Notes: a model not told the origin generated them from the sequence alone. DNA of 64,000 nucleotides from Nitrosopumilus sp. (GCA_965204345.1 OZ241981.1:448001-512000), one strand, 5' to 3'; positions 37,319 through 54,057 are shown, counted from the first letter of the stretch. Numbers and translations are program-made.

Positions 37319-37386
37319 AAAAACATTAGAAAAAATACACTATTAAAGAATTAGAAAATTCCCAGTGATGACAACAGCAGCAACAG

Positions 37387-37572
37387 TCACTCTGCCTCAA
37401 ACATATCGCAGCCAAAAGTGCACGGCTTATTCATCACTCCCTCACATGCACCCAAGTCATCATGCATGATTCTATGGTGACCACAGGTCTTACATTTTTC
37501 CCGAAAATGGGAAATCAGCTCAGCAGTAGAGATGCCAGATTCCCGGATTTTCAATAGAGTTTCTTCGGCCAT
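37387..37572 (-). CDS. Small Cys/His metal-binding hypothetical protein
   Basis: CKTCGH..H...C......C..GC. Confidence 0.55.
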   Translation of the reverse strand: MAEETLLKIRESGISTAELISHFREKCKTCGHHRIMHDDLGACEGVMNKPCTFGCDMFEAE

Positions 37573-37796
37573 AATGGGATTGGATAATCAAGTTAGTTTA
37601 AACATTTTGAACAAATATCTAATAGGAGACAAAAGGAAGAAAGACTCGTGAGCATCATAAAATATATCAACAAAATGAGTCATCGCAAATTCTACTTGAT
37701 ATTTGGAACATCCAGCATAGTTGCGTTTTATTTGCTTTTTACAAACTGTTATCAATTGTACGGGGAGCACTGTTTTTACGTTCCATAAAATGCAAA

Positions 37797-37903
37797 GCAA
37801 CAAATGCCAACTTGCTAGAAAAATTATCAAACTCAGATTGCCTTGAGCGTTTACACCAGTTGCCTTTGCACCAAATGCTAATTTACTAGAAAAATTATCA
37901 GAC
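37797..37903. repeat. 36-bp direct repeat (31/36 identical) flanking a 35-bp unique insert
   Basis: gcaacaaatgccaacttgctagaaaaattatcaaac (37797-37832) and gcaccaaatgctaatttactagaaaaattatcagac (37868-37903). Confidence 0.8.
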
Positions 37904-37904
37904 A

Positions 37905-38096
37905 GTGTTGATTAAGCCAGATAAAGAATCAGACAGATATCAAACAGTAATAGTTGAGTCAAAAGTCAGGGAGGGGATATTTCACAAAGTCATCAAGGAC
38001 TTGGAAAGTGGAAAGGCCGTCTCATGTTCTTGCAAGTGCTGGAGTAAGGGAAACAAGCCCTGTGTGGCCATGAGAACTATTGGTTATAAAGAGTGA
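37905..38096 (+). CDS. Small SWIM-like zinc-binding hypothetical protein (mobile-element-like)
   Basis: VESKVREGIFHKV...SCSCKCW....PC pattern. Confidence 0.5.
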   Translation: MLIKPDKESDRYQTVIVESKVREGIFHKVIKDLESGKAVSCSCKCWSKGNKPCVAMRTIGYKE

Positions 38097-38266
38097 GAAA
38101 TGTCAGGTTGTGTGCCATGAAAGGAGATTCACATGCTCAATGTCAGGACTGTGGGGGGCAATGCACATATTCAAAACATCGCATGCAAACTCATGCAGAA
38201 TATCTGAAAAGACACAGGTGTCCAAAGTGCGGGAATTTTGCGCTGAAAACTAGGAGTTTGGGGACG

Positions 38267-38373
38267 GCTTGATTGCAAGTGAAACTGTTATCTGATTTTG
38301 AGTTGAGGACCAGCCATATTTTGAGGCACTAGTCAGAGCTTGATTGCAAGTGAAACTGTCATCTGATTTTGAG
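38267..38373. repeat. 36-bp direct repeat (35/36) flanking a 35-bp unique insert
   Basis: gcttgattgcaagtgaaactgt(t/c)atctgattttgag at 38267-38302 and 38338-38373. Confidence 0.95.
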
Positions 38374-38376
38374 GGC

Positions 38377-38486
38377 TCTTGTGTCAATAAAGGCGCCGAG
38401 AGAGGGATTCGAACTATTGTTTCTAATCTGAACTTTAGGTTATTATGATCTTGTGTCAATAAAGGCGCCGAGAGAGGGATTCGAAC
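38377..38486. repeat. 36-38-bp perfect direct repeat of the tRNA-Ser 3' end flanking a 34-36-bp insert
   Basis: tcttgtgtcaataaaggcgccgagagagggattcgaac at 38377-38414 and 38449-38486. Confidence 0.95.
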
Positions 38487-38547
38487 CCCCGCACGCTTGC
38501 GCGTAGCCGTTTTCGAGACGGCCGCCGTACTACTTGGCTATCTCGGC
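38466..38547 (-). tRNA. tRNA-Ser(CGA)
   Basis: GCCGAGA/TCTCGGC acceptor stem, anticodon loop CTCGAAA, long variable arm, GGTTCGAATCC T-arm, G discriminator. Confidence 0.96.
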
Positions 38548-38596
38548 ACCTATTATGGGATTGTCTCCATAATAAAACGAATAGATGAGTTTAGGC

Positions 38597-38902
38597 CTAA
38601 TCAATGTCAAATAATTCGTCTCTGAATTTCTTTTTGATTTGATCCCGTGTTCTAACCCACTCTTCGTCAGTTACAGTGTCTGTAAAAATGGAATGAAACC
38701 CGTCAAATTTCGGATTATTCAGTATTGCAATGATTTCCCGTCTTTCAAATTGTGTAAAAGGAAAATAAGAGACAATGGCTGAAACAGAATCATCGGATTG
38801 ACGGATTTCAAATATTTTATCTTGTAAATTGGGCGGAAATCTTTGTTGGGACACTTGATTTTGAATTTGCTTGCATAGTAAATATGATTTTAAAGACAGC
38901 AA
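38597..38902 (-). CDS. Conserved hypothetical protein
   Basis: 101-aa ORF divergent from fen; start codon uncertain. Confidence 0.6.
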   Translation of the reverse strand: MLSLKSYLLCKQIQNQVSQQRFPPNLQDKIFEIRQSDDSVSAIVSYFPFTQFERREIIAILNNPKFDGFHSIFTDTVTDEEWVRTRDQIKKKFRDELFDID

Positions 38903-38963
38903 ATAAGATACCGATCAGTTCCAAAGGATAAACACAAAATAGATGAAAAATCCATGGGATCTC

Positions 38964-39983
38964 ATGGGATTAAATCTCAAAGACCTAGTCACAAGAGAAA
39001 AGACAACGCTGGATGCATTTTCAAACAAAATCATAGCCATAGATGCATACAATGCAATTTACCAGTTTTTAGCAAGCATCAGAGGTCCGGATGGCCTGCA
39101 GCTTACAGATGCAGAGGGAAGAATAACCAGCCACCTCAGCGGATTGTTTTATAGAAATGTGAACTTTCTCTCGCTGGGAATCAAGCCGGTTTATGTTTTT
39201 GACGGCAAGCCGCCATCACTTAAAACGGCAGAAATTGAACGAAGAAAACAGATCAAAAGAGATGCCACTGTAAAATATGAAAAGGCAGTTGCAGAAGGCA
39301 ACATGGAGGATGCAAGAAAATATGCACAGCAGACAACCAGCATGAGGGACGGGATGGTAAAAGAGTCAAAGCAGTTTCTCACGTATTTTGGAATTCCATA
39401 TATTGATGCGCCCTCAGAAGGAGAGGCAACTGCAGCACACCTAACAAATACGGGACAGGCATATGCATCTGCAAGCCAGGACTATGACTCTATTTTATGC
39501 GGAACCAAAAGGCTGGTCAGGAATTTTACAAGCAGCGGAAGAAGAAAAATTCCAAACAGAAATACATACATCGACGTGGTGCCAGAAATCATCAAAACTC
39601 AGAAAACTTTGGATGCAATTGAAATGACAAGGGAAGAATTAATTGACGTGGGAATTTTAATTGGAACAGACTTTAATCCAAATGGTTTTGAGAGAATTGG
39701 GCCAAAGACTGCAATAAAACTAATCAGGCAGCATTCAAGACTGGAGGATATTCCACAAATTCAAGAACAGCTAGAAGAAATAGACTTTGAGCAAATAAGA
39801 AAAATATTCCTAGACCCGGATGTGGCAGACGTGGATGAAATCGTGTTTGGAGAAGCAGACGACATAGGAATTACAAAATATCTAAAGGAAAGAAGTTTTT
39901 CAGAAGAGAGAATTCAGTCTACACTAAACAGATTGAAAAAGGCACTGGAAAAAAAGAGTCAGAATCTAGACCAGTGGTTTTAG
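38964..39983 (+). CDS. fen: Flap endonuclease 1
   Basis: [38 protein letters not shown] and C-terminal PIP box QNLDQWF. Confidence 0.97.
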
Positions 39984-40188
39984 ATTACAAATTCATCCCA
40001 TCATACTTTAAAAAAAACAAAAGAGGTCATAGAGCTATCCATTGCACGATATGCATCAAAAAAATCCTTCAGAATTTGTGCCCAAATTATGTTTGATAAT
40101 CTTACAGCAGCTATTGTAATAGCACTTGCAGCAATGCATGTTGAATTTTTTGTACTAATAATAAAACTCGGGGATTATCAAAATAAAG

Positions 40189-40404
40189 TCATGGGGCATA
40201 AGTCCCTGTTTTGAGAATTGCCAATCTGATTTTCTTGTTCCAATCAAGAATCTGATTGGAATAGTCATCAATATCATCATTCTGTATTGTTTGTTTAGAC
40301 CTCATCCTCATCTCAAAGAATACTTTGGCAAAGATTACACATGACATGATTAAAAATATCTTAAAAAACCAACTAGTTTCATCTGGTTTCAAGCGTATAA
40401 GCAT
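40189..40404 (-). CDS. Small hypothetical protein
   Basis: ORF only; start uncertain. Confidence 0.35.
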   Translation of the reverse strand: MLIRLKPDETSWFFKIFLIMSCVIFAKVFFEMRMRSKQTIQNDDIDDYSNQILDWNKKIRLAILKTGTYAP

Positions 40405-40433
40405 TTTTATATTTAAAATTTGGAAATTAAATA

Positions 40434-41105
40434 ATGGAATATGAGATTGTGAAAAATCCCATGGGACTAATTGAATTTACACTAAACAGGGATGAAAAAA
40501 TTACAGCAGAGGCCGCTGCCATGGTTTTCATTAAGGGTAACATTAGAACTGAAACTAGAATGAGAAAGGGCGGATTTTTAAAATCACTCAAGGCCGCGGC
40601 GTTTGGGGGGGAATCATTTTTTGTAAACGAGTTCACAGCAGATGAGAATGATTGTAAGCTCGGACTGACAGGAAATATGCTAGGAGATATTGAGGTACTA
40701 GATGTTAATGAGGAGTTTATAGTTCAATCAGGTGCATTTGTAGGCTCTACTACAGATTTAACACTAGATACCAAATGGCAGGGATTCACCAAAGGGATCT
40801 TCGGCAGCAACCTATTCATGCTAAAAACAGTCGGAACCGGAAAAATGTTTGTTAATGCATGGGGAGGAATTGTTAAGAAAAAGCTAGAATCAGGAGAAAG
40901 GATGATTCTTGACAACTATCAACTAGTTGCACTAAGTTCCACGGCAGATTACAGAGTAACAAAGCATGGCAGCCTTAAAACAACACTGTTTGGGGGAGAA
41001 GCCCTAGTCATAGAGATAATTGGCCCGGGAACAGTATACATACAGACAAAGAACATTATGGAATTTGCCAGGGCACTAATTCCATTTCTCCCAAGACGGA
41101 ATTAA
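40434..41105 (+). CDS. AIM24 / TIGR00266 family protein
   Basis: ITAEAAAMV, FGGESFFVN, FGGEALV and GPGTVYIQT motifs. Confidence 0.9.
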   Translation: MEYEIVKNPMGLIEFTLNRDEKITAEAAAMVFIKGNIRTETRMRKGGFLKSLKAAAFGGESFFVNEFTADENDCKLGLTGNMLGDIEVLDVNEEFIVQSGAFVGSTTDLTLDTKWQGFTKGIFGSNLFMLKTVGTGKMFVNAWGGIVKKKLESGERMILDNYQLVALSSTADYRVTKHGSLKTTLFGGEALVIEIIGPGTVYIQTKNIMEFARALIPFLPRRN

Positions 41106-41421
41106 TAAAATCAAAAATAAGGAAATTGTTAAAGCATCAGCAATGCCATCCTAGAAAAATATTTGTCATGAGAGCATGTTTTCATAGGAAATTACATCTT
41201 GAGATTGAATTTAAAAAAAAATATACATAATGCAATTTGTTAAATACGGGAAACCCTCGTAAAAAAACAAAAGGAATAAAGATGAACAAAGATGATTACT
41301 TAAATCCAGCAGGCCAGAATTGTAACAGACACTTTTTAAAAACAAGAAATGAGAGAGGGGACATTCCTTTACAACCCTAAAGGTAATCTATATTGCATTA
41401 AGAATTTTTCCAATACTTTTT

Positions 41422-42921
41422 GTGCTAAAAAAACACAGAAAAATCTGGATTCACAAGCAAGATGAAAGCGTGGATCTAGAAAAATTTACAAAAAATGGCA
41501 GAAAGTTGCTAAACACGTTTCTGTCACTGGGACCAGTATACATAAAATTGGGACAGTGGCTTTCCTCCAGAGCAGACATACTTCCACAGCCATACATGAA
41601 AGAGCTGGAAAAATTACAGGACAACATTCCTGCTGCGCCATTTGAAAAAGTCAAACCCATCTTAGAAAGGGATTTGGGATCAGTTGAGGGGAAATTTGAT
41701 TTCTTTGATCATGATGCGCTGGCTGGCGCGTCACTGGGACAGGTGTATCGCGCCAAGATAAACAACAAGGAAGTGGTTGTTAAGGTAAAGCGTCCTGGAA
41801 TAGAAGAAAAAATAAAAGAAGACATAAAGGTTTTAGAGAAATTTTTGCCAATAGGCCTGAGATTTATTGATCCAAACCTGGGTTTTTCTGCAAAGTCAGT
41901 CATAGCACAGTTCATTGAATCAATTCATGAGGAGATAGACTATACTTTGGAGCTAGCTAACTTGAAAAAAATCAAGTGGAATTTAAGGGATAACGACAGG
42001 GTGATAATTCCCTCAGTTTATGAGGAATATTCTTCAAAAAACGTCATCACAATGGAGTATCTTCCGGGAATAAAAATCACGGACATTAAAGCCCTAGATG
42101 AGAAAAAATTTGACCGAAAAAAGCTGGTGCTAGAAATTTTTAATATCTTTTTTACAATGCTGCTTCGGGATCCCATATTTCATGCAGATCCCCATCCAGG
42201 CAATATTTCAGTGAGCAGGGAGGGCAAAATAATCCTATACGATTATGGAATGATTGGAAGATTGGACAAGGAGACTAGAATGCGTCTAATTAGGGTATAT
42301 CTAGGATTGATAGAAAAGGATCCGTCAAGGACAGTCAACGGCATGGAAGAACTCGGAATGTTAAAGCCCGGATTCAACAGGATTTTGATTGAAAAGGCCA
42401 TATCAATGTCAATACGAAGCATACATGGACAAAAGCCAGACGAGGTGGAAGTAAAATCATTTATGGAATTGGCAAACAAGACCATGGGGAGATTTCCATT
42501 TTTGCTGCCAAAGGAGCTGGCATCCTACCTAAGAATGGCCTCAATACTAGAAGGAATTTATGAAACACACAATATTGAGTTCAGGTTTGCCAAAGTCCTA
42601 AGAGCAATTTTAGAAAAAGAGAATCTGGTATTCAGGGCATATGTGCAAGAATTAAAACATTCATTTAACAGGATAACAGAGTCAGTTGATACTGCAATAT
42701 CGCTTGCACCGGAGCTAAAGAGGTTTTTGGATGACAGGCATTCCCTTGAGGAAACAACAAAAAAACGAAACCAGAATCTCCTGCTTTCAGGAAGCATTTT
42801 GTCCTCTGCTGTCTTTGTTGGCTCTGCAGTTTTGTTTTCTGCAAATGAGCTTGCAGGCACAATAGGGATGATAAGCTCAGGTGTAATAATGGGCATTTTT
42901 ATAAAGTTTACAAGAAATTAA
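41422..42921 (+). CDS. AarF/ABC1/UbiB family atypical kinase
   Basis: LGPVYIKLGQWLSSRADILP, ASLGQVY, VKVKRP, FHADPHPGN, DYGM motifs and C-terminal TM segments; true start uncertain. Confidence 0.92.
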   Translation: MLKKHRKIWIHKQDESVDLEKFTKNGRKLLNTFLSLGPVYIKLGQWLSSRADILPQPYMKELEKLQDNIPAAPFEKVKPILERDLGSVEGKFDFFDHDALAGASLGQVYRAKINNKEVVVKVKRPGIEEKIKEDIKVLEKFLPIGLRFIDPNLGFSAKSVIAQFIESIHEEIDYTLELANLKKIKWNLRDNDRVIIPSVYEEYSSKNVITMEYLPGIKITDIKALDEKKFDRKKLVLEIFNIFFTMLLRDPIFHADPHPGNISVSREGKIILYDYGMIGRLDKETRMRLIRVYLGLIEKDPSRTVNGMEELGMLKPGFNRILIEKAISMSIRSIHGQKPDEVEVKSFMELANKTMGRFPFLLPKELASYLRMASILEGIYETHNIEFRFAKVLRAILEKENLVFRAYVQELKHSFNRITESVDTAISLAPELKRFLDDRHSLEETTKKRNQNLLLSGSILSSAVFVGSAVLFSANELAGTIGMISSGVIMGIFIKFTRN

Positions 42922-43310
42922 TTGAGCAGGTTTTCAAATACGTGCAGCAGCAAAGTTGATTTTTTTTAGTCATGTTTACTGGCAAAACATTGCCCCAAGT
43001 ACGCCTCTAGTTTTTCTGGCCTTGATATTTTCAGCATCAAAACCGGCCAGACCGGATTTGACTTTGGGATTATCACCTGCCAATAAGCATCAAAGGCACA
43101 GGGATTCATTTGGTGACGTGTGCGACTTGTCATGCCTCTGAGGACATATCCCTTGCAAATTGCTCCAGGACTTTTATTTAACATGCAATGACAATACAGA
43201 CGGCATCTTCTTAAAGATGCTTTACTCTAATTTAAGATCAAAAGATGTGAAATGTCAAAACAGCCAGAGGCTTTAAAATACTTTAAGTATAATTAAAAAG
43301 AATCCCGTTT

Positions 43311-43607
43311 ATGGTTCATTTTTTAGCATGGTTTCTGGCAGGACTTGCAGCCCCTAAAGTGTATGAAAGACTAGCGCCGGAGGTAAAGGCTCAATGGAAG
43401 AAAAAGTATCCAATACATCACGGCGAGGCGGGAATTCTGATGGTGTTGGGGGGATCTGTTACAAAAAATCTGGGATTGGCAGCTTTTGGAGCAGGCCTGA
43501 TCATAGAAGATTGGAAGGATAGAAACGAATGGTTCAAAAAAACAGATTCAGAACAAGGCATTGAGGAATCTGCTTTTGATGATGATGATGATGATGATGA
43601 CAGTTAA
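43311..43607 (+). CDS. Small membrane protein with poly-Asp tail
   Basis: IHHGEAG..GLIIEDW motif; GAT run at 43578-43601. Confidence 0.65.
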   Translation: MVHFLAWFLAGLAAPKVYERLAPEVKAQWKKKYPIHHGEAGILMVLGGSVTKNLGLAAFGAGLIIEDWKDRNEWFKKTDSEQGIEESAFDDDDDDDDS

Positions 43608-44150
43608 CTGCACAGCAAACCAAAAAGATCTCAAGAGAATTTAAAATGAAGAGAAGAAAAACAAATGTACAGCATGGCATTTTTTGACGAGTCCTGTACC
43701 GACTAATTGCGTATTTTGCAGGTATGTCTTTTAGCGTATGCATTATGGGACCCACATTACCAATAAAAGAAACGGTTAGACCAGATTGGTTTATTGCAGT
43801 TCCAACCATGACTGTAACATGGTTTTAGGAACAGGTCTTGTGATAAAATGAGATGCTCGTAGTTAAAGGGATAAAGACCAGACATTAGGATTTGCCAAAA
43901 GGAGTATTACATTACAGGTAAAGGCACCTGCTGATTTGTGTTTGGTACGTCTCTCAGAAAAAGGACTGACAGCAACAGTCTGGTATCAGGCTTGGCAGTC
44001 ACCATGTAGGCGTATCTGGGATATTTTTGGGATGAAAAAACAAAGAGAAATCAAAGTCAGAAGAAAAACCAGGCGGCCAGGTAATTTTTGAGACAGCCTA
44101 GTTATTTTAAAAGGATTATAACTTAATAACCAGACACCATATTCTAAAAA

Positions 44151-44681
44151 ATGCATCAGACAGAAGCAAGAAAGATACTCAAGGATGCCCCAATCATGTG
44201 GAGAAGAATCAACTCAATAGGCATGATTTTAGACTGTAATTCAACATACGCTGCAAAGCTAGGGTACATCAAGTCAGAGATACTTGGAAGGCCAATCTTT
44301 GAGCACGTACCAAAGGAGGCATGGAAGGACATGAATAACTCTCTAAAAAGATGGTTTGAGACAGGCAAGGTAACAGATAGAAAAATTACGTTCAAAAAGC
44401 AGACAGGTGAGACATTTCTAGGGCTTTTGCAGGCAACTAGCCTGTACGATGAGAACAGAAATCTGCTTGGAAGCAACACGGTAATTTTTGACTTGGAGCA
44501 GATGACAGGTGAAAAGATTAAGGAATGCCAGGAATTTTTTAAAAAATCAAACGAAAGATTGGATGAGATTAAAGAAAAAGACTATGATCAGCTAGATGCA
44601 AATTCAAAGCTAGAATATGATGGACTAGAAGAGATGTTTGAAATGCTATCTGCCATCAACCTGGAGCAATTAAAAAAATAA
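44151..44681 (+). CDS. Stand-alone PAS domain protein
   Basis: GMILDCN..YAAKLGY..SEILGRPI and LYDENRNLLG patterns. Confidence 0.8.
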   Translation: MHQTEARKILKDAPIMWRRINSIGMILDCNSTYAAKLGYIKSEILGRPIFEHVPKEAWKDMNNSLKRWFETGKVTDRKITFKKQTGETFLGLLQATSLYDENRNLLGSNTVIFDLEQMTGEKIKECQEFFKKSNERLDEIKEKDYDQLDANSKLEYDGLEEMFEMLSAINLEQLKK

Positions 44682-46604
44682 TTATTCTGGATTTTCCTTG
44701 ATTGATTTTTGAAGTTCATCAAAGACTTGTTTGACCTCAGTTACAGCAGAACCGTCTTCTAGCGTACTGACATCACCGATTTGCTCACCATTGCCAATTG
44801 CTTTGAGCAGCCTGCGCATGATCTTGCCACTGCGGGTTTTGGGTAACTTGGAAACAAAACAGATTTGCTTGGGAGCTGCAATTGCACCTATGTCGATTCT
44901 GATTTTTTCAACAAGTTGTTTTTCTAAAATCACAGAATCAGCTGCAACTCCTTGTTTTAAGACCACAAATGCAATTATTGCCTCGCCCTTTACATCATCG
45001 GGGACCCCACATGCGGCAGATTCTGCAACATCAGGATGGGATACAATGCAACTTTCAAGTTCGGCAGTCCCAATTCTGTGACCGGCAACCTTTAGAACGT
45101 CATCTGCACGGCCTAGCATCCACAGATAGCCATCATCATCCTTTAAGGCATAGTCGCCCGGATAGTAGCAGTTTTGATATTTTGACCAGTAAACAGTCCT
45201 GTATTTTTGATCATCACCCCACAGTGTCAAAAGCATTCCGGGCCAGGGATTTCTGATTACCAGGTATCCCTTAGTGTTGGCACCGGCCTCATTTCCATTC
45301 TCATCGACAACGTCAATTTTTACACCTGGAATGGGGCGTGTCCCAGAACCGGGCTTTAGAGGAATTGTCTCAATGCCAGGCAGGGACGAAACTAAAATCC
45401 CGCCAGTTTCAGTCTGCCACCAGGTATCAATAACGGGACACTTTTCCTTTCCTATGGTTTTGAAATACCATTTCCATACTTTGGGATTTATCGGTTCCCC
45501 GACTGTCCCAAGCAGTCGTAGGGATGAAAGATCAAAGGAGTTTGGAGCATCATCGCCAAACTTCATAAACATTCTCAGTGCGGTAGGCGTGGTGTAAAAA
45601 ATTGTAACTTTGTATTTTTGTAAAATGTCCCACATCCGTGACGCATCAGGAAAGTCAGGGGCTCCCTCATACATCACTTGGGTTGCACCATGAAGTAACG
45701 GGGCATAAACGACATAGCTGTGGCCTGTAACCCAGCCAATATCAGCAGTGCAAAAAAAGATGTCAGTATCTCTAATATCAAATGCCCACCTGAATGTAGA
45801 ATGCAGATGTGTAAGGTATCCTCCGGTGCCATGCAAGACACCCTTTGGTTTTCCGGTGGTGCCCGAAGTATACAAAATGTAAAGGGGATGATCACTGGGC
45901 AGTTTTTCAGCAGCACACGAATCAAAAGCTTTCTCCATTAGTTTGCTCCAAAGTTTGTCTTTAGGGGAGGTGGAGAATTTTTGCTTTGTTCTCTCCAAGA
46001 CAACCACATGTTCTACAAAATCAAGGTCTGCAATTGCAGTATCCACAACATCCTTGAGCGGAATAATTTTCCCCCTCCTGTATCCGCCATCGGCAGTTAC
46101 AATTACTTTGGATTTTGAGTCCGATACCCTGTCTTTGATTGATGAGGCGCTAAATCCGGAGAAGATTACAGTGTGTATTGCGCCAATTCTGGCACATGCA
46201 AGCATTGCAATGGGCAGTTCGGGAACCATTGGGAGATAGATTGTAACCCTGTCTCCCTTTTGGACACCAAGTGATTTGAGGACATTGGAGAACTTTTGGA
46301 CCTCAGTGAACATCTGGCCATATGACACATTGCGGCATTCGCCGTTTTCTCCCTCCCACAGTATTGCAGGCCTGGAGGATTTTGATTGCTGATGAATGTC
46401 CAGTGCATTATGCGAGGCATTAATTGTGCCTCCAACAAACCATCTGGCAAAGGGGGGATTCCAATCAAGGGTCTTCTCCCAGGGGGAAAACCAGGACAGA
46501 TTCTTTGCCTGCCCATCCCAAAAGGATACAAAATCAGAATCGGCCTTTCTTCTTATGCTCTCATCGTGATTTCCAAGGCCGATTTTGTAGATTTCAGACA
46601 TCAA
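44682..46604 (-). CDS. acs: Acetyl-CoA synthetase (AMP-forming)
   Basis: YTSGTTGKPKG, DTWWQTETG, GRADDV and PKTRSGKIMRR motifs. Confidence 0.96.
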   Translation of the reverse strand: MMSEIYKIGLGNHDESIRRKADSDFVSFWDGQAKNLSWFSPWEKTLDWNPPFARWFVGGTINASHNALDIHQQSKSSRPAILWEGENGECRNVSYGQMFTEVQKFSNVLKSLGVQKGDRVTIYLPMVPELPIAMLACARIGAIHTVIFSGFSASSIKDRVSDSKSKVIVTADGGYRRGKIIPLKDVVDTAIADLDFVEHVVVLERTKQKFSTSPKDKLWSKLMEKAFDSCAAEKLPSDHPLYILYTSGTTGKPKGVLHGTGGYLTHLHSTFRWAFDIRDTDIFFCTADIGWVTGHSYVVYAPLLHGATQVMYEGAPDFPDASRMWDILQKYKVTIFYTTPTALRMFMKFGDDAPNSFDLSSLRLLGTVGEPINPKVWKWYFKTIGKEKCPVIDTWWQTETGGILVSSLPGIETIPLKPGSGTRPIPGVKIDVVDENGNEAGANTKGYLVIRNPWPGMLLTLWGDDQKYRTVYWSKYQNCYYPGDYALKDDDGYLWMLGRADDVLKVAGHRIGTAELESCIVSHPDVAESAACGVPDDVKGEAIIAFVVLKQGVAADSVILEKQLVEKIRIDIGAIAAPKQICFVSKLPKTRSGKIMRRLLKAIGNGEQIGDVSTLEDGSAVTEVKQVFDELQKSIKENPE

Positions 46605-46659
46605 AAAAGTTTATGAGGATAGATCCTTCTAAGTGTTTAAAAAAAATAATTTAAAAAAA

Positions 46660-47538
46660 TTATTGTGCTTCCATTCTAGCAAGCCAGTCATTATCATTAT
46701 CATCTTTTGAGGTCTCTGCTGTCACCTGTTGGGGTGGTTCTGGAAATGCAAATGTTACCTCAGATTCAGTTGGAGGCTCTGGTATTGGGGTACTTGGCGC
46801 CTCTATTGGCCCTGAAGGTATTGCTGCTGATTGGACTGGAACTTCTGGAAGTATTGTCTGAACTGCCTGTTGCGGTTCAGAAGTCTCCAGGTATGTAACG
46901 GCTGATTCTTGGATGTCCGGTGTTGGGGGGGCTGTTATCTCTTGCACTTCTAGTTCAAGATCTGCAATTCTGGTCTTTACATTTGCAATTTCTGCTGTTT
47001 CGTGAGTTATATGCTCAATTACCTCAGTTGTGCATGACTTTACAGTCTCAAATGTTGGATCAGAGATTTCGTTGCTTTTGAACTGTACTTTTGCATCAAA
47101 CGATAGCATCTTTGCAGACTTCATCTGATCATCTAACTCAGCCAGTCTTGCCTCAAGCACAGCCTTGATTTGGCTTTCTGTCTCATCTAATAATACAAGC
47201 TTTGACTTGTATTTTTCATGAATGATTTGTGCATCTGCCTTCATGTCATCATTTTCTGAAACAATATCAATCAGTGCCTTTAGACGGCGTAGAGTTAGCT
47301 GTTTTTCACGAATGAGCCTTTGGGAGTCGAGTCTCCATTTTGGAATGAATATAACAACTTCGCCTTGAACCACCAGTTGCTCATATTGGATTTGCTGTAA
47401 TCCCTGAGAACCGCAGTCAATGCCGACAGACTGTATGCTGCCATCGATGTCAGTCATTGTTCCTACAACCTTACCCATGAATGTTCCGTACATGTCCTTG
47501 ACGTTTTTACCGATTATTTCGATATCGTCTTGGGTCAT
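46660..47538 (-). CDS. cdvA: CdvA-like cell division protein
   Basis: IGKNVKDMYG PRC-like N-terminus, coiled coil and Pro-rich tail; ATG 47538 preferred. Confidence 0.82.
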   Translation of the reverse strand: MTQDDIEIIGKNVKDMYGTFMGKVVGTMTDIDGSIQSVGIDCGSQGLQQIQYEQLVVQGEVVIFIPKWRLDSQRLIREKQLTLRRLKALIDIVSENDDMKADAQIIHEKYKSKLVLLDETESQIKAVLEARLAELDDQMKSAKMLSFDAKVQFKSNEISDPTFETVKSCTTEVIEHITHETAEIANVKTRIADLELEVQEITAPPTPDIQESAVTYLETSEPQQAVQTILPEVPVQSAAIPSGPIEAPSTPIPEPPTESEVTFAFPEPPQQVTAETSKDDNDNDWLARMEAQ

Positions 47539-47671
47539 GTGAGTTAGTTTAGAGATTTGTATAACCAACAAAGTGTAAGAAATGTTTTTAGTTTTAGTAA
47601 GATAAAATTCACAAACTCAAGACAGGTCAATTTTCAGTAATTTTAAAATCTAGAGACAAAATAACAGGCTC

Positions 47672-47965
47672 ATGATTCAAAAAGAGGAACTAGAGCAAAT
47701 TTTGAATTTTGTCGCAAGCAGGTGGACCGGAGCCACAAAGGATCCAAACAACAGGGCAATGGATACTCTGCCAAATGACTTTTGGATGAACTCAATTGGA
47801 GGAAAGACTGCCAAAAAGGGATTCTGGGTTACAACCCTAATGTATACAGAAAATGAAGAGGATGCCGAATCCTTCAAGCAGGTACTGCTAAGATGGCAGG
47901 CAAAAGGCCAAGACAAAGACAGAGACAAAGGTCCCGATCTAATTCAAATTGGAAAAAAGAAATAG
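47672..47965 (+). CDS. Conserved hypothetical protein
   Basis: 97-aa ORF directly upstream of thyX on the same strand. Confidence 0.65.
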   Translation: MIQKEELEQILNFVASRWTGATKDPNNRAMDTLPNDFWMNSIGGKTAKKGFWVTTLMYTENEEDAESFKQVLLRWQAKGQDKDRDKGPDLIQIGKKK

Positions 47966-47997
47966 AGTATTAATAATTGTGAGCTGACATAACGGTA

Positions 47998-49617
47998 TTG
48001 TCAGAATTCTCAATTAATGAAAAAAAAATTCTATCCAAACATTTTTCAAATACGGAAGGGAATGTCTTTGCAATAACTACTCCGCGACAAGTTGATCGCG
48101 GTGCGTTAATGTCAAGATACAGCAGAACAGATAAGAGCATGAGAAGAGTCTTCCTAGATGAATTCTTAAAAAACAGAAACAGGGGGGAGGAATTTTACAA
48201 CAGGGTGCTTTTAGAATACGGGGATGATTCTGTTGCAGAGTTGGGTGAAGCCCAGATTGCAATAGAGGGACTCTCAAACATTGCAGTCAAAAAAATTGAA
48301 GACAGGCGAATTGGCCTGTCATACTTGGAAAAATCATCAAGGTATGTAGTATGGAACAAGAAGGAAAAAGGGAAATACAGGTTTTACAGGGAACCCAAAA
48401 TTATGGAATCGCGGTTTGCAGACATTTATGAGGAGAGCTGTAACTTTTCATTTGATGTTTATTCAGAAAACATAGAGCCGATGATAAGATATGTTAGGGA
48501 AAAATATCCAATAGAAAAATATAGTTTTAAGAATTCCAGGGACGGAGAGGAAAAATTATTCTCTAAGCTAAGAGACGAGTCAGACATAAAGTCAGCAGAG
48601 ATGATTTACAAGGGCTCAACAAAGGCAAAGGCACTTGACATACTGAGGGGATTATTACCTGCATCAACTTTAACAAATGTTGGCATTACAGGAAACGGAC
48701 GCGCATTTGAATATCTTTTAACAGTTTTAGGCTCGTCTGAGCTAAAAGAAGAGCAGGATTTAGCCTCAAAAATCAAAAAAGAGCTTGACACGACGATCAA
48801 GTCATTTGTCAGAAGGGCAGATGACAGGTATGGCAAAGCATTTCAAAAATATCTCAAAGACATCAGAAATAAATCCAAGGCAATTGCTGCAAAAGAAATA
48901 AGACCGGACCCAAGAGAGGGGACGATTACAAAACTTGTAAGGTACGAATCAGAAAGAGATGCAATAGATACGATCATCACAGGTATAATGTATGAGCAGT
49001 CACCGGGTACGTCATATCAGAATATTTTCAGGCAGGTAAAAGGATTGCCTAGGGAGAGAAAGACTAAGATCATAGATGAATTTGCAAGGATTCGCACAAA
49101 CAGGCGCCACAGGCCGCCAAGGGCATTTGAAAACGTGTATTACACCTTTGACTTGTCCAATAATTTTGGAATGTTCAGGGACTTTCACAGGCACAGGGCA
49201 CTGACACTAGAAAGACAGATGCTTACAACGGATCACGGGTATGGCATGCCAGATGAAATAAAGATTTTGGGCATTCAGAGGGATTTCAAGGATTGCATGA
49301 ACAAAACAAAAGAGGCGTTTGAAAAAATTAGAACCAGATTTCCAGAGCAGGGGCAGTACGTAGTAAACTTTGGATACAACTATCCGTACTTTATGAAGTT
49401 TAATCTAAGGGAGGCCTGCCATCTAATTGAGCTGAGAACGGTTCCGCAGGGACATGCAGATTACAGAAGGGTTGCACAGCAAATGTTCAGACAAATTAAC
49501 AGGGTTCATCCAAATCTTAGTAAAATTATAAAGTATGCAGATATGAAGGAATATGATTTGGAAAGATTTGAATCAGAGAAAAGAACAGAAGAAAAGAGAA
49601 AAGATTTGAAAAAATAA
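47998..49617 (+). CDS. thyX: FAD-dependent thymidylate synthase (long duplicated-domain form)
   Basis: [27 protein letters not shown] and ELRTVPQGH motifs. Confidence 0.88.
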
Positions 49618-49620
49618 AGA

Positions 49621-50040
49621 GTGAATCAAATGAAAGAAAGAATAGAAAAGACACAGGAGGAATGGAAGGAGCAGTTAACCCCGGATCAGTATGAAATATG
49701 TATCAATCACGGAACAGAGCCGCCATTTTCAGGCAAATACAACAGCACAAAATTGGAGGGAGCATTCAGATGCACGTGCTGCGGTGAGAAGCTCTTCTCA
49801 TCAGATGCAAAGTTTGATTCAGGCTCAGGCTGGCCAAGCTTTTGGGAGCCAATCTCTGAGGAAAAAATAGAGTATGTCTCAGACACAACACATGGAATGG
49901 TTCGCACAGAGGTAAACTGCAACAGATGCGGGGCGCATTTGGGACATGTATTTGATGACGGCCCAAAGCCGACAAATCAGAGGTACTGCATCAATTCTGT
50001 CTCACTGCAGCATGAGAAGGATGACAAAAGACAAGAATAA
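49621..50040 (+). CDS. msrB: Peptide-methionine (R)-S-oxide reductase
   Basis: GTEPPF, KFDSGSGWPSF, HLGHVFDDGP and RYCINS motifs. Confidence 0.97.
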   Translation: MNQMKERIEKTQEEWKEQLTPDQYEICINHGTEPPFSGKYNSTKLEGAFRCTCCGEKLFSSDAKFDSGSGWPSFWEPISEEKIEYVSDTTHGMVRTEVNCNRCGAHLGHVFDDGPKPTNQRYCINSVSLQHEKDDKRQE

Positions 50041-50057
50041 ACTCAGAAAAGGCTCTC

Positions 50058-50345
50058 TTAACTTGCCGGGTGTTTGATTCCGGATCTTCCTGATGTTAGA
50101 TGGCCTGAATTTAGATTGTTTGAGGCATTGCCAGCCTTGATATACATGCCTTTGGATATGTGTATTATTTTTCCTGTTTTTGTCATCTTGTGGATGATGC
50201 CCCTTATCGAGTGTTTTGTAATGTCTCCTTTATCTTCAAATCCGCACTCAACTACGTATTTGTAAATTTCTTTCAGACTCTTTTTTTCATTTGATTCAAA
50301 AATATCATCTATTGCACGCCCCATCGTATTTTGTTTTTTCTTCAT
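50058..50345 (-). CDS. Small basic winged-helix-like protein
   Basis: SLKEIY...SIRGII..M...GKI.HISKGMY pattern. Confidence 0.55.
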   Translation of the reverse strand: MKKKQNTMGRAIDDIFESNEKKSLKEIYKYVVECGFEDKGDITKHSIRGIIHKMTKTGKIIHISKGMYIKAGNASNNLNSGHLTSGRSGIKHPAS

Positions 50346-51071
50346 AGCAGCAGAACCTCCTTAGGCGAAAACTTGAACTGTAGCATCTGTGCTGTCTGGC
50401 CACACCCCATTGCCTCCCTTTCTCTGAACCGTTATTTTGCCCAGTTTTAGATTGCCTCTTTTTGTAATTTTTGTCAATCCCCCATAATGATTGATTACAT
50501 TTTCTATCTTGGTTATTGCCAAATGTTTTATCCCATTGTCGTTCTTCTTGACCACAGGCATATAATCTGCTTTTGGCTCTGTATTTCCTCTTAATACATC
50601 ATGAATGATTCTAGACTTGTTTTTGCCAAAGAAATTCAGGATTTTCTTCTGTTCATCAAGTGTCAATTCCGTAAGAAAATAGCGTCTCTGATCTTTTACT
50701 TGTGGGATTGGATTCTCATCACTTGGCCTGTATCCCTCTTGTCCACAGTATTTTTTTAAAATGACAGCCACATCTTTTGGAATACTCTACATTTTTTGAT
50801 ATGTGTCTGCCTTTCGCTTGTCTATCTGGCTAAAACGGATGGTGAGCTTTTTTATGGATATCCCTATCTGATTGCCTCCATTGACTATTAGAAGAGCATC
50901 TGCCTTTCCATTCATGCCCAGTGAACGTGTAGTGCTTGCCTTGAGAGTCCTTATTTTGGAGTATCCCATTACAGAAAGCCATTTCTTTGCAGTTATACTG
51001 TTACTCCAATTCTGAAACTCATCTACAACTTGATCTTCGGTTGCAAAACCACTTTTGGCAGTTTCAGACAT
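50342..51071 (-). pseudogene. HinP1I-like type II restriction endonuclease, disrupted
   Basis: TAKSGF, WLSVMG, KAD, SIKK, FSQIDK, KDQRR and ITVQRKGG recall R.HinP1I. An in-frame TAG at 50787-50789 replaces the conserved W, and a frameshift near 50405 displaces QMLQFKFSP. Confidence 0.8.
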
Positions 51072-52002
51072 GATTCATCAGATGGGTTTGTGGTACATTA
51101 TAGTTTATGGCAATTATTTCCCTGCTTTTATCTTTCTGTGTAAAATACTGTAATGACCTGTTTAATGTGATTTTAAATACCCTATACATTGAAGACAGTC
51201 TCAGATAATCTGGCTGGTTTTGCTCTGAAATCATCACCTTGTTTGACTTTTGGATGTTTTTTACAAATTTCATAAAATCATCTAGTTCTACTACTGCATT
51301 ATAGTGGCCGTTGGCGTTGTTCATGTATGGCGGGTCAAGATACACAAAGCCGTTGCAGACATCCGCATAACTTGTAAAATCCTTGTTTGTTATTTTGAGA
51401 TGTTTTATTGTATTGCTTAGAAATCGTATTGTCTCCCTCTTTATTTGAGGACAGTTTGCGTTTTTTCTCATTGGACAGTTAAACTTGTTTTTTGAATTGA
51501 ATCTAATCTTTCCAGAAAAGGCATTTTTAGCAAGATAGAAAAACCTGCCAGCTCCCAGTGAACCGTCCTCCAGATCCAAATTCCTTACATGCAGATAATA
51601 ATCAGGGCTTGATTTTTTGTAATGTCGTTGGTACTGGTCAAAAAGATCATCGGGGTTTTTTCTTAGGGATTTTACAAAGTTTGTAATTACTGGATTATGA
51701 TCATTATACACGATATTTTTTGAACCAAACCTGTTGCAGGCATAAAATGTAAATCCACATCCGCCCCCAAAAACATCATAAATTTTTTCGCCATAATTAT
51801 CAGGAATCAACGAATCAAAGATATGTGCAAATCCTGATTTGCATCCCACATACGGAATTATCTTTAGGGGTGCTTTGTGCTGTCTTCCAACATCAAAACG
51901 TTGTGGCATCCACATGCTTTTTTCAGGCCTCTTATCAGTTTGAACGCAGTGTATTCCAACATCAAAACGTTGTGGCATCCACATACCTCCCCAATTTTGC
52001 AT
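51064..52002 (-). CDS. Dam-like (D12 class) DNA adenine methyltransferase; ancestral start probably near 51915
   Basis: PYVGCKS, DVFGGG, FSGKIRFNSKNKFNCP and VYLDPPY motifs. Confidence 0.88.
   Translation of the reverse strand: MQNWGGMWMPQRFDVGIHCVQTDKRPEKSMWMPQRFDVGRQHKAPLKIIPYVGCKSGFAHIFDSLIPDNYGEKIYDVFGGGCGFTFYACNRFGSKNIVYNDHNPVITNFVKSLRKNPDDLFDQYQRHYKKSSPDYYLHVRNLDLEDGSLGAGRFFYLAKNAFSGKIRFNSKNKFNCPMRKNANCPQIKRETIRFLSNTIKHLKITNKDFTSYADVCNGFVYLDPPYMNNANGHYNAVVELDDFMKFVKNIQKSNKVMISEQNQPDYLRLSSMYRVFKITLNRSLQYFTQKDKSREIIAINYNVPQTHLMNHV
51882..51986. repeat. 36-bp direct repeat (34/36) flanking a 33-bp unique insert, in frame at the methylase N-terminus
   Basis: gt(c/a)ttccaacatcaaaacgttgtggcatccacat(g/a)c at 51882-51917 and 51951-51986; gives MWMPQRFDVG twice. 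Confidence 0.93.
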
Positions 52003-52030
52003 CTTTTACGTCTTTAATCAAAAGATCGAA

Positions 52031-52225
52031 TCACTCTCTTACTAGTTCCAAGACAATCTGCTCTGTCTTGACATCCAGTGTCCATTTTATCCTGTGATCA
52101 GTAGTAATTTCTAACATCTCTGCAATGTCCCTGGGAATTGTACAGTGTACCGTCTGATTCTTGTTTGCAATTACAACGTTTGAGTATTTTATCAGATTTT
52201 TTACACTGTTCAAAACTCCGAACAT
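52031..52225 (-). CDS. AbrB/MazE-like small DNA-binding protein
   Basis: CTIPRDIAEMLEI....IKW.L.....IVLE pattern. Confidence 0.65.
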   Translation of the reverse strand: MFGVLNSVKNLIKYSNVVIANKNQTVHCTIPRDIAEMLEITTDHRIKWTLDVKTEQIVLELVRE

Positions 52226-52264
52226 TTGCCTCTAGTATCCAATTCGGGACATGGAATCAACATT

Positions 52265-52525
52265 CTAATCCAAAAGATGGCCTTGGGGATATTCCTTAAT
52301 CAAGTCTTGCATGACCCATACTGCCTCATTTCTGATGGACTCGTCTGGATGCACGATAAATTTTTTGCAAAATTCCAGCCTGTCCTCGCCTGAGAGTGTC
52401 TGTGCATATCTCTGATCTATTTTGGAATGTGATATGGAATCAAATTTGGATGAGGTATCTTTTATGACAGTTATCTTGTTTTGGTCAACAACCATACATC
52501 TGCCCGGTGCAAACTTTTCAGCCAT
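52265..52525 (-). CDS. Small hypothetical protein (single HEAT-like motif)
   Basis: HPDESIRNEAVWVM. Confidence 0.5.
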   Translation of the reverse strand: MAEKFAPGRCMVVDQNKITVIKDTSSKFDSISHSKIDQRYAQTLSGEDRLEFCKKFIVHPDESIRNEAVWVMQDLIKEYPQGHLLD

Positions 52526-52555
52526 GTAAAATAAACTGCCACAAATACAATTTAA

Positions 52556-52612
52556 TGGATTTGGTATATTTGGTTATCTGATAACTGGAATTTGACAATT
52601 TATTGCCAGGGT
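52556..52612 (+). mobile_element. Truncated MITE-like left end
   Basis: ggatttggtatatttggttatctgataactggaatttgacaatttattgcca matches the family consensus. Confidence 0.6.
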
Positions 52613-52648
52613 GCTGCACTATTGGCAGTTTTTAGGATGAGTTGTCAG

Positions 52649-52897
52649 TCATTTCATGTTTGCTATGTAGGCTTGTATGTCATCCCAACCACTTGAGCAT
52701 ACCTCAGTAGGATTTCTTTTCTGCACACATATTGCTTGCTCCAGAGTGTAAATTAGATCCAGACCCGAATCTTCTCCGCACAACAGTGTACCCGGATCAT
52801 AATGAGTATAACATGTAGGTATCAAAAGTATGCCAACTATTGTAAAGATTATGACTGTAATGCCAAATAAAAGAAGATGAGATGGGATCTTGATCAT
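52649..52897 (-). CDS. Small membrane-anchored Cys-containing protein
   Basis: N-terminal hydrophobic helix and four Cys. Confidence 0.55.
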   Translation of the reverse strand: MIKIPSHLLLFGITVIIFTIVGILLIPTCYTHYDPGTLLCGEDSGLDLIYTLEQAICVQKRNPTEVCSSGWDDIQAYIANMK

Positions 52898-52916
52898 CGG
52901 AGACTCAGAAGACTTG

Positions 52917-53155
52917 GGGCATGATAAAGTTTGATGAATTGATCACCGGAGTTTAACAAAGAGAAGGCATCGGTCTTATTTCAGACAACGGTGATAAAGT
53001 TTGATGAATTGATCACCGGAGTTTAACAGTAAATTGCAAGAGAGTGTTTTCTTAAAAAAAAATTACCCCGTCATCAAAGAATCCCAAAGTAAGTGCAATT
53101 AAGAGACTGCTAAATTTATGATTAATAGCATAGGACACCGAAATTTGTCAAACCT
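52917..53155 (+). mobile_element. MITE-like element whose left end carries a 36-bp duplication plus insert
   Basis: 52992-53153 aligns with the reverse complement of 54065-54212 over about 150 bp. Confidence 0.7.
52922..53028. repeat. 36-37-bp perfect direct repeat flanking a 33-34-bp unique insert (CRISPR-like single-spacer unit)
   Basis: tgataaagtttgatgaattgatcaccggagtttaac(a) at 52922 and 52992. Confidence 0.95.
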
Positions 53156-53210
53156 CCTGACATACAGGAATTGAATTATTACAGTAACGATGAACTATTC
53201 GTAGATATTA

Positions 53211-53405
53211 TTAATTATAATTTCCAAGTGTTCCTTGTCCTATATAACACACATCAATTAAAGGTGCTCGACATACACCATCTTCTTCATCAATAAAACA
53301 TTCAATACATCCAAATTCATCTACGGGAAGATCTGTTGTAGTAATAGGTATGAATATTGTGATAACAAATACTACTATGCCAATCAGTATAGCTATTTTC
53401 TTCAA
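53211..53405 (-). CDS. Small secreted or membrane Cys-containing protein
   Basis: MKK plus hydrophobic signal and four Cys; TTG start. Confidence 0.5.
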   Translation of the reverse strand: MKKIAILIGIVVFVITIFIPITTTDLPVDEFGCIECFIDEEDGVCRAPLIDVCYIGQGTLGNYN

Positions 53406-53430
53406 TAAGAAAAAAAGAGAAAAGTAATAT

Positions 53431-54057
53431 TTATTGGATTCCTAGCTCTGAAACTACGTTTTCCCAAGGACTAAATACTTTGAATAGAGCGTCTTTATTG
53501 TTAGCATCACAACCCGGAATAGTAAATGGATTATCATTTATCTCAGTGATGAAGCAGCCTTTACCCACATGTATACCAAGTAATCTTACATCTGTTCCAT
53601 CTACATCACTGTAAGTTGGTGAACCCGAATCACCTTTTGTACTTGGATAATTAGCTATTGCTTGATTTAGTAATGTATAGCCATCCATGGTACAGTTGCA
53701 TTTTGGTACTGTAATCCACCATAACCATCATTTTTTATTTCTGCAATTTTCACAACATTACCAGCTATCATGCCAGATAGTCCACCTTTTTCTACAACAT
53801 TTAGAGTTATATCTGCTAGTCCATTATGTGTAAGGATTTCATCTGCTCTAAATATTATTGATGGATTAGTTACTTTTACTAATGCAGCATCTGCAATTGG
53901 ATTTATTGAACCATATACATTTGAGTCTCTAACTACATTATCAATTTCTGTTCTAGGTGAAATGAGAGGTAGCTGTTTAACAAATATTTCTCTATTTTGT
54001 ACTATATCTGAAGTAGCATGAGATGAAATAACAATGCAGTTGTTATTGTTTTGTTGT
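53431..54057 (-). pseudogene. 5'-truncated, frameshifted trypsin-like (S1) serine protease
   Basis: ISSHA and IADAALV are in one frame, while KGDSGSP..LLGIHVG is in another (shift near 53690); no start codon. Confidence 0.75.

Follow-up and report, generated by a model that had tools for sequence, protein, structure and literature searches.

Spacer-sized insertions within repeat-length duplications point to off-target CRISPR integration throughout a Nitrosopumilus genome

Five short segments of local DNA, each present twice as direct repeats around a unique insert, lie within 15.3 kb of the genome of a Nitrosopumilus sp., a sponge-associated ammonia-oxidising archaeon. Both the duplications and the inserts have the size of CRISPR repeats and spacers, and the question is what wrote these structures, hereafter called scars, outside any CRISPR array. 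The stretch in which they were noticed, hereafter the window, is 64,000 nucleotides long (G000:C1:448001-512000). It belongs to an assembly of 2.12 Mb in 9 contigs, with a main contig of 38.7% G+C and an estimated contamination of 3.5%. Scars of this geometry occur throughout the genome and, as we argue below, are very probably the product of off-target spacer integration by the archaeon's own Cas4-Cas1-Cas2 module, which is of type I-B ancestry.

A direct-repeat search of window positions 37000-54000 revealed six families. Five are the local duplications around unique inserts that the original prediction had placed there, and the sixth is a 20-nt tandem repeat. When the search was extended to the whole window, none of the nine families had the same geometry besides the five structures. 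Maximal repeats are 35-38 nt long, and the inserts of events 1-5 measure 35, 35, 34, 34 and 33 bp; the predicted sizes (35, 35, 36, 33 and 34 bp) were approximately right, with boundaries misplaced by 1-2 nt. The structures and the two genes that they touch are as follows, in window coordinates.

37797..37832, event 1, first target copy, 36 nt; 31/36 identical to the second copy (86%), spacing 71
37833..37867, event 1, unique spacer-sized insert, 35 nt; without another match in the genome
37868..37903, event 1, second copy, from the direct-repeat search
38267..38302, event 2, first copy, 36 nt; 35/36 identical to the second copy (97%), spacing 71
38303..38337, event 2, insert with a chromosomal copy, 35 nt; 34/35 over its full length to G000:C1:262049-262083, minus strand
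38338..38373, event 2, second copy, from the direct-repeat search
38377..38414, event 3, first copy, 38 nt; 38/38 identical to the second copy, spacing 72
38415..38448, event 3, insert, 34 nt; no match in the genome and no exact match in a viral contig collection
38449..38486, event 3, second copy, inside the intact tRNA gene; 38/38
38464..38547, minus strand, tRNA-Ser (anticodon CGA), found by ARAGORN; its 3' end is the target of event 3
51064..52002, minus strand, open reading frame (ORF) of 312 aa for a D12-class N6-adenine DNA methyltransferase (PF02086, E 3.8e-24, domain from residue 51)
51881..51915, event 4, first copy, 35 nt; 34/35 identical to the second copy (97%), spacing 69
51916..51949, event 4, insert, 34 nt; absent from the orthologue in genome G014 and from a copy on contig C9
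51950..51984, event 4, second copy, from the direct-repeat search
52922..52958, event 5, first copy, 37 nt; 37/37 identical to the second copy, spacing 70
52959..52991, event 5, insert, 33 nt (35 possible, with one ambiguous base per side); 30/32 to G000:C1:964067-964098, minus strand
52992..53028, event 5, second copy; 37/37

The duplicated sequences are unrelated among loci, as had been noted: each pair is local sequence, unlike the other pairs and unlike the canonical CRISPR repeat of this genome. Event 1 looks the oldest of the five. The predicted tRNA 3' end is indeed a target, the first copy of event 3 consisting of the last 23 nt of tRNA-Ser and 15 nt past its 3' end. The predicted methylase start is that of the D12 methyltransferase, where event 4 is an in-frame 69-bp (23-aa) insertion close to the N-terminus, with the frame open throughout the structure. 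Event 5 adjoins a multi-copy element found at six further places in the assembly, in agreement with the context of a miniature inverted-repeat transposable element (MITE) end named in the prediction. The element (window 52200-52920) has 79-95% identical copies at C1:409502, 1941851, 1937074, 1680742 and 263274 and on contig C7, and its read depth is several-fold higher in all DNA runs. The five events form the densest cluster in the genome, five being reached in 0.14% of random-placement trials. Around events 1-3, comparison of G017:C1:107699-108076 with window 37792-38457 showed that the homologue of window 37660-37791 directly adjoins the tRNA-Ser region in G017. Because G017 is without these ~670 bp, in which events 1-3 lie along with two small zinc-ribbon-like ORFs, the segment is a variable insertion beside the tRNA gene.

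Is the geometry peculiar to the window? A scan of the genome for isolated two-copy direct repeats of at least 25 nt, at all periods from 25 to 400, returned 77 repeats, 28 of which have periods of 70-74 and 36 of which have periods of 65-79. Repeats of at least 30 nt with periods of 60-80 were taken as the event set. This set contains 34 loci, corresponding to 28 independent events and 6 copies inside later segmental duplications, which comprise three inverted pairs, contig C8 and a segment of 3.6 kb triplicated at 1.407-1.414 Mb. The triplication is a tandem array of ~3.6 kb units at C1:1406775, 1410373 and 1413971; every unit bears the same 72-bp scar, and the triplication is therefore younger than the integration.

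Among the 28 events, repeat lengths are 33 (3 events), 35 (6), 36 (6), 37 (3), 38 (8), 39 (1) and 42 nt (1), and insert lengths are 30 (1), 33 (4), 34 (7), 35 (7), 36 (4), 37 (3), 38 (1) and 41 nt (1), so that 26/28 inserts fall at 33-38 nt. Periods are 66 (1), 69 (2), 70 (5), 71 (6), 72 (10), 74 (1), 75 (2) and 76 (1). The genome-wide length distribution is sharply peaked and not flat, in line with the original prediction; the fixed 36-bp duplication that it proposed has to be replaced by a range of 33-39 bp, plus one ambiguous case reading 42. Copies are perfect in 19 of the 28 events and mutated in the other 9.

A more tolerant scan of the whole genome (34-nt window with at least 26 matches, periods 40-130) gave 49 clean matches at periods 68-76, as opposed to 28 over the other 82 periods, none of which exceeded three. 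A peak of this kind excludes chance. The tolerant scan adds 20 degenerate candidates to the event set, some of them short or doubtful. Hardly any other kind of isolated two-copy repeat occurs in this genome besides the spacer-type scars. Inserts do not derive from diverged local duplication, a possibility that the prediction had singled out for checking, as they match their own flanking repeat at 13.8 positions compared with 13.95 for random DNA. They are also mutually unrelated, the best pairwise comparison yielding 20 ungapped matches.

The cas genes and canonical array that were to be looked for outside the window are present, and the periods of the array match those of the scars. A single Cas1 homologue is encoded in the whole genome (C1:1887727-1888668, minus strand), and its gene contains two in-frame TAA codons. 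On the minus strand, cas1 is followed by cas2, cas4, a short leader and a six-repeat array with periods of 72, 68, 70, 72 and 72. The repeat of the resident array is ~34-37 nt long and those of relatives are 36-37 nt long; scar duplications have their mode at 36-38. The cas1 gene is itself split by an in-frame 72-bp structure, made of a 38-nt perfect duplication and a 34-nt insert. The duplication repeats the peptide VIKIKPYQKHYA, the insert translates as LQ*DLI*SSSII, and excision of the event in silico restores a 337-aa cas1 frame. Since cas1 is broken by a scar, integration activity is probably extinct in this genome. The array, too, carries an off-register event, in which a 40-nt unit (28 nt from the repeat, 12 nt from the adjacent old spacer) is duplicated around a 32-nt insert with a period of 72.

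Proteins 60-61% identical to this Cas1 are encoded in two Nitrosopumilus genome records. Both relatives' loci feature long arrays with 36-nt repeats and periods of 70-72. In one of them, L073, the gene order is cas7 (Csh2), cas5b, cas3, cas6, cas1, cas2, cas4, leader and array, and the system is of type I-B. A tblastn search of our genome with eight L073 Cas proteins retrieved cas1, cas2, cas4 and a fragment of cas6 (its last 123 aa); over the whole genome, cas8, cas7 and cas5 had no match, and the cas3 query matched only a DEAD/MZB helicase, at 24%. A Cas3-core candidate at C1:181071-182030 scored below the cut-off and is likewise a DEAD/MZB helicase, not Cas3. Family searches of the genome for RAMP, DevR-type Cas7 and Cas6_C gave no match, and the complete type I-B set (cas8b, cas7, cas5, cas3 and cas6) was not found in this genome. 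The locus is a decayed type I-B system that retained its adaptation module, and the undescribed Cas1-like system considered in the original prediction is not needed, the module being what is left of an ordinary type I-B locus. When DNA of the cas locus was used as a query across the genus, matches were dominated by an unrelated conserved gene at the end of the locus.

The truncated cas6 (C1:1884292-1884660, also bounded as 1884278-1884673) lies on the opposite strand and is 63% identical to Cas6 of the relative. It adjoins a 563-aa ORF of the phage integrase family on the other strand (C1:1882557-1884296), and, relative to cas6, the block made up of cas1, cas2, cas4 and the array is inverted. 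The position of the truncated gene beside the integrase ORF, together with the inverted block, suggests loss of the type I-B effector genes through a mobile element.

Scar targets do not resemble the canonical repeat: their mean best match is 15.2/36, compared with 15.0 at random sites (P 0.31), and repeat likeness was rejected as the basis of target choice. The junctions do share a short motif. Both ends of the 28 events were treated symmetrically, without choosing an orientation, which gives 56 junctions. G occurs at -3 in 28/56 (expected 10.8, p 2e-7), GC at -3/-2 in 13/56 (expected 2.3, p 4e-7), GCT/ or G[AG]CT/, where the slash marks the junction, in 10/56 (expected 1.1, p 1e-7), T at +2 in 26/56 (expected 17.1, p 0.009), and A at both +6 and +7 in 20/56 (expected 5.9, p 5e-7). 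The motif thus reads G at -3, C at -2, T at -1, T at +2 and A at +6/+7, and is found on both sides in inverted orientation. The leader-repeat junction is GGCT/CT in this genome, and GACT/CA and GGCT/CA in two relatives; the canonical repeat has T at +2 and A at +7 at both termini. The prediction that each scar starts with G-(T/C) was a partial view of this motif, which resembles the leader-repeat junction and is enriched at both junctions. Its proposal of leader-independent integration into non-CRISPR sites is supported, with the reservation that the process is not fully sequence-blind. The motif agrees with in-vitro off-target preferences reported in the available portions of two studies, in which such sites resemble the leader-repeat junction (PMC6895254) or share features of the repeat (PMC6698737).

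All 34 inserts were compared with the genome by BLAST. In 5 of the 28 unique events, the insert has a second full-length match elsewhere in the chromosome, as listed below (event, source, identity).

Event at 330574: source at 1275229, 34/36
Event at 486267 (event 2 of the window): source at 262049, minus strand, 34/35
Event at 500922 (event 5 of the window): source at 964067, minus strand, 30/32
Event at 1385280: source at 174508, 33/34
Event at 1947301: source at 1288999, 30/30

These matches end at the insert ends, and all mismatches are transitions. The sources belong to ordinary genes: trpA, a gene of the NFACT family, one of UPF0182, and two small frames without assignment. Loose ends of public run X12 also show the source locus of event 2 (262049). 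In the four self-source events with perfect repeats, mismatches number 0/153 in the repeats and 5/132 in the spacers (Fisher p 0.02), and the base at the left boundary of the event 5 insert agrees with 7/7 relatives' loci and not with the resident gene. Because of this contrast and this boundary base, there is a hint, from small numbers, that some "self" spacers may have been derived from the DNA of a closely related strain. The chromosomal sequence matched by the event 5 insert is conserved: extended by 4 nt at either end, the insert matches it at 33-34/41 positions in all seven relatives' loci examined, and searches with the insert gave matches in 21 of the 24 other genus genomes searched. 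The suggested search for insert origins was thus fruitful within the chromosome; the virus collections yielded nothing relevant, and no consistent protospacer adjacent motif (PAM) emerged. A blastn search of window 37790-38490 against a phage collection returned only two chance-level 27-nt matches, to Staphylococcus phages, and five exact-pattern scans of the viral contig collection gave 0 matches. NTG on one side of 4/5 protospacers is a post-hoc impression, which we do not claim as a PAM.

If the scars are insertions, sites without them should be recognisable, and empty single-copy alleles, which the original prediction had proposed to look for, were found for four events. In G014, the methyltransferase orthologue carries the event 4 target once and lacks the insert. 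The same is true of a copy in the same assembly: positions 1003-1634 of contig C9 (2886 bp) are a second copy of window 51500-52200, 94-97% identical and without event 4, and represent either a paralogue or a co-assembled strain variant. At the site of event 3, G014 carries one tRNA-Ser end. An in-frame 72-bp event at C1:754439, near the start of a conserved 528-aa frame, is missing from 5/5 relatives examined.

For event 2, the evidence comes from public sequencing runs, in the form of assembled contigs. A joint from 38266 to 38338, skipping exactly 71 bp, is present in runs X8 (DNA) and X12 (an RNA library) from other studies. In run X5, a single contig spans 37000-38406 with 0 differences and shows the filled form of events 1 and 2. 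Independent contigs therefore support the junctions, and events 1 and 2 are not artefacts of our assembly. As event 2 is empty in X8 and X12 and filled in X5, it is polymorphic among natural populations. Contigs of runs X5 and X6 end at the perfect repeats of events 3-5, and neither bridge nor refute them. Six other events were queried in five relatives, in which no usable orthologous DNA extends across the site. Those at C1:162808, 1546947, 1400070 and 1045502 lie in strain-specific DNA as judged from the five relatives searched; at C1:368743, partial matches in relatives stop at the edge of the site.

Six events are located inside long frames that remain open throughout (686, 1891, 313, 528, 899 and 1101 aa, from stop to stop), and each adds 22-25 residues. 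Excision in silico of the event at 368743 restores a 178-aa frame. Periods are multiples of three in 15/28 events (p 0.02 versus one third), an excess that fits selection against frameshifts, but within the array, too, 72 is the most frequent period.

Cas1 homologues are present in 50 of the 89 genus genomes searched (completeness of at least 95%), this genome being counted. The tolerant scan was rerun on samples of 400-800 kb from four other genomes, with the following results.

G132, type I-B with 37-nt repeats and array periods of 71-73, 400 kb: 12 matches at periods 69-75, most with perfect 34-44-nt repeats
G086, intact type I-B, 800 kb: 6 matches, 3 of them perfect
G080, Cas1-positive, 400 kb: 2 older-looking matches, period 72
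G002, no Cas1, 52% G+C, 800 kb: 3 matches at periods 68-72
This genome, decayed type I-B, per 800 kb: 19 and 16 matches

Within the genus, the same scars are seen in three further genomes with Cas1; they recur where this type of adaptation module is present. They occur in genomes with an intact type I-B system as well, and are consequently peculiar neither to this genome nor to the loss of interference. At one scar, G086:C1:43914, the 3' end of the target matches the end of the canonical repeat at 11/12 bases (hand count); this is a repeat-like off-target site, unlike most. G014, a close relative, has five Cas1-family matches, two of which lie in open frames of ~577 aa that may be fusions or casposon-type genes; several genus genomes likewise contain Cas1 in open frames of 557-578 aa.

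How might these structures have arisen? The Cas4-Cas1-Cas2 complex would capture a prespacer of 33-37 bp, its source being mostly unknown DNA and, in at least 5 of 28 cases, chromosomal or near-identical DNA. It would then attack the two strands of a non-CRISPR target ~36 bp apart, using the same ruler that produces the ~36-37 bp repeat duplication in an array. Gap repair would duplicate the 35-38 bp between the two attacks and leave local sequence, spacer and the same local sequence. A short junction preference of the enzyme could account for the flanking motif. Events would persist where they are tolerated, that is, in intergenic DNA, in accessory genes and as in-frame insertions of 22-25 aa, and the cas1 event, with its two stop codons, probably ended activity in this lineage. 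Self-derived inserts would be harmless because they lack a repeat recognisable by Cas6, and the small, decaying array may itself be a consequence of the cas1 hit. In this scheme, we infer the identity of the enzyme as Cas1-Cas2, the order of the chemical steps, and the halting of the process by the cas1 event.

The best-surviving alternative is that another Cas1-type integrase, belonging to an earlier resident CRISPR or carried by a virus or plasmid, or a trans-acting casposase, wrote the scars, and that the present module is a bystander. The broken state of cas1 would suit this explanation, as would the one good candidate scar in Cas1-negative G002 and the frequency of several Cas1 homologues per genome in the genus (five in G014, at least one in 50/89 genomes). 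We nevertheless regard it as unlikely. Only one Cas1 homologue is present here, the scar periods match those of the resident array (68-72) and of the arrays of the closest relatives, and in G132 both scars and array are 1-2 bp longer. Moreover, the copies of the cas1 scar are perfect and thus recent, so that the gene may have been active before it was hit. For casposons, target duplications measure ~14-15 bp, which speaks against a casposase.

A process independent of Cas proteins, such as template switching, break repair with filler DNA or a small mobile element with a 36-bp target duplication, is very unlikely; nothing specific argues for it. The inserts differ from each other and from their flanks and hence are not one element, and insertion of a transposon or MITE with target-site duplication was rejected for this reason, as no element sequence is shared. 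Duplication and insert sizes are sharply fixed, some inserts are exact-ended copies of distant genes, and the canonical array displays the same geometry.

The scars could also be viewed as functional single-spacer mini-CRISPR arrays like those of viruses and mobile elements, which, in the available text of PMC8616872, likewise consist of two repeats and one spacer. This is highly improbable. The repeats of mini-arrays are described there as identical or similar to the canonical repeat of the host, whereas scar repeats are local and no closer to it than random sites; several scars lie inside ORFs; and the Cas6 and effector genes needed to use them are no longer present. Canonical arrays were rejected as well, each site having two copies of a repeat that is unrelated to those of other sites and to the canonical one. 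Finally, although the assembly is in 9 contigs with contamination estimated at 3.5%, and De Bruijn contigs of other runs break at perfect repeats, an artefact of assembly or sequencing is a negligible prospect, given the independent X5 contig bridging events 1 and 2 with 0 differences, the mutated copies in 9/28 events, the presence of some events in every copy of later segmental duplications, and the same scars in other genus genomes. None of these alternatives explains together the matching periods, the exact-ended protospacers, and the events in cas1 and in the array.

Several observations weigh against off-target integration by the resident module. We infer the link to Cas1-Cas2 from geometry and co-occurrence, and cas1 is a pseudogene here, so that activity cannot be current. 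The junction motif and its tests were chosen after the data had been viewed, and replication is weak: G at -3 is found in 8/18 junctions of G132 (p 0.04) and in 1/6 of those of G086, and the leader junction of G132 is GTCA/GT, not GCT/. Repeat length varies by ~2-3 nt, beyond what a strict ruler would give, although chance matches at the edges inflate some values. The Cas1-negative sample is one genome, G002, and is not a clean control, since one of its three matches (33/34) looks like a true scar. Lastly, 23/28 inserts are without a source in the genome or in the virus collections searched, and a consistent PAM is not derivable from five protospacers.

We lean, by a narrow margin, towards a broader interpretation. 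In a largely sponge-associated Nitrosopumilus clade, the type I-B Cas4-Cas1-Cas2 module may act as an ongoing, leader-independent insertional mutagen. It would leave ~4-30 single-spacer scars per Mb, add in-frame peptides of 22-25 residues, duplicate tRNA ends and, being able to destroy its own gene, limit itself. Were this so, the catalogue of scars would be a direct readout of the intrinsic target code of the integrase and a snapshot of the earliest birth of arrays.

Nivala, Shipman and Church are said to have described non-canonical spacer integration in Escherichia coli (Nat Microbiol, 2018). Off-target integration giving rise to "neo-CRISPR" loci in E. coli overproducing Cas1-Cas2 is referred to in the available parts of 10.1101/148544, PMC7054753 and PMC6698737; the first of these, as far as its available text goes, terms natural evidence from two other species circumstantial. 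The scars share with neo-CRISPR loci a spacer-sized insert outside an array, a repeat-length local duplication and independence from a leader. In contrast to that engineered, over-expressing bacterium with a type I-E system, they are found in a natural archaeal genome with an I-B-derived module, where ~28 fixed or polymorphic events in 2.1 Mb include in-frame protein insertions, a tRNA end and cas1, and recur in three other genomes. In-vitro integration with Streptococcus thermophilus (PMC6895254) and Pyrococcus furiosus (PMC6698737) proteins resembles the scars in its leader-junction or repeat-like context and its fixed attack spacing, to judge from the portions available. Those portions deal with plasmid assays and largely half-site products, whereas the scars are full-site and chromosomally fixed, with the motif on both sides and at sites that are not repeat-like.

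Isolated arrays, reportedly treated by Shmakov et al. in CRISPR J in 2020, are said to have repeats that resemble a known CRISPR repeat. Off-target spacer acquisition has been proposed as the origin of such isolated or orphan arrays (cited in the available part of PMC13142298), and the proposed origin away from cas genes is the same for the scars. Here, however, all but a few targets are unlike the repeat (G086:43914 is an exception), and no site has gone beyond one spacer. Ectopic spacer acquisition inside arrays, reported for S. thermophilus (PMC7999890) and covered in a review (PMC8047081), both seen in part, similarly involves loss of strict leader-proximal polarity. It uses the canonical repeat, and only the off-register event of the resident array is comparable. 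No description of genome-wide natural scars was found in the full-text literature searched, for Nitrosopumilus or elsewhere; natural examples in Nivala 2018 and Shmakov 2020 may overlap in kind. The available part of a sponge-holobiont paper that mentions Nitrosopumilus CRISPR does not refer to ectopic or off-target integration. The mechanism is known from experiments; what is new is its natural scale and setting, the in-frame protein insertions and the cas1 hit.

The natural relevance of off-target integration bears on the cost of adaptation modules and on the birth of CRISPR arrays. From genomes alone, scars allow one to measure how costly to fitness a Cas1-Cas2 integrase is and which targets it intrinsically prefers. 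Their signature, a repeat-length duplication with a spacer-length insert, can be searched for in other lineages, and the two-repeat "questionable CRISPRs" dropped by detection programs may include real biology.

Elsewhere in the window, two simple head-to-tail duplications, unrelated to the scars, are present at positions 17119-17196 (39 bp twice) and 35815-35862 (24 bp twice). A cell-division gene of the CdvA family (PF18822; 46660-47571, minus strand) lies on a contig of metatranscriptome X12 with a depth of 532, compared with 1-20 nearby, contig depth being a poor measure of expression.

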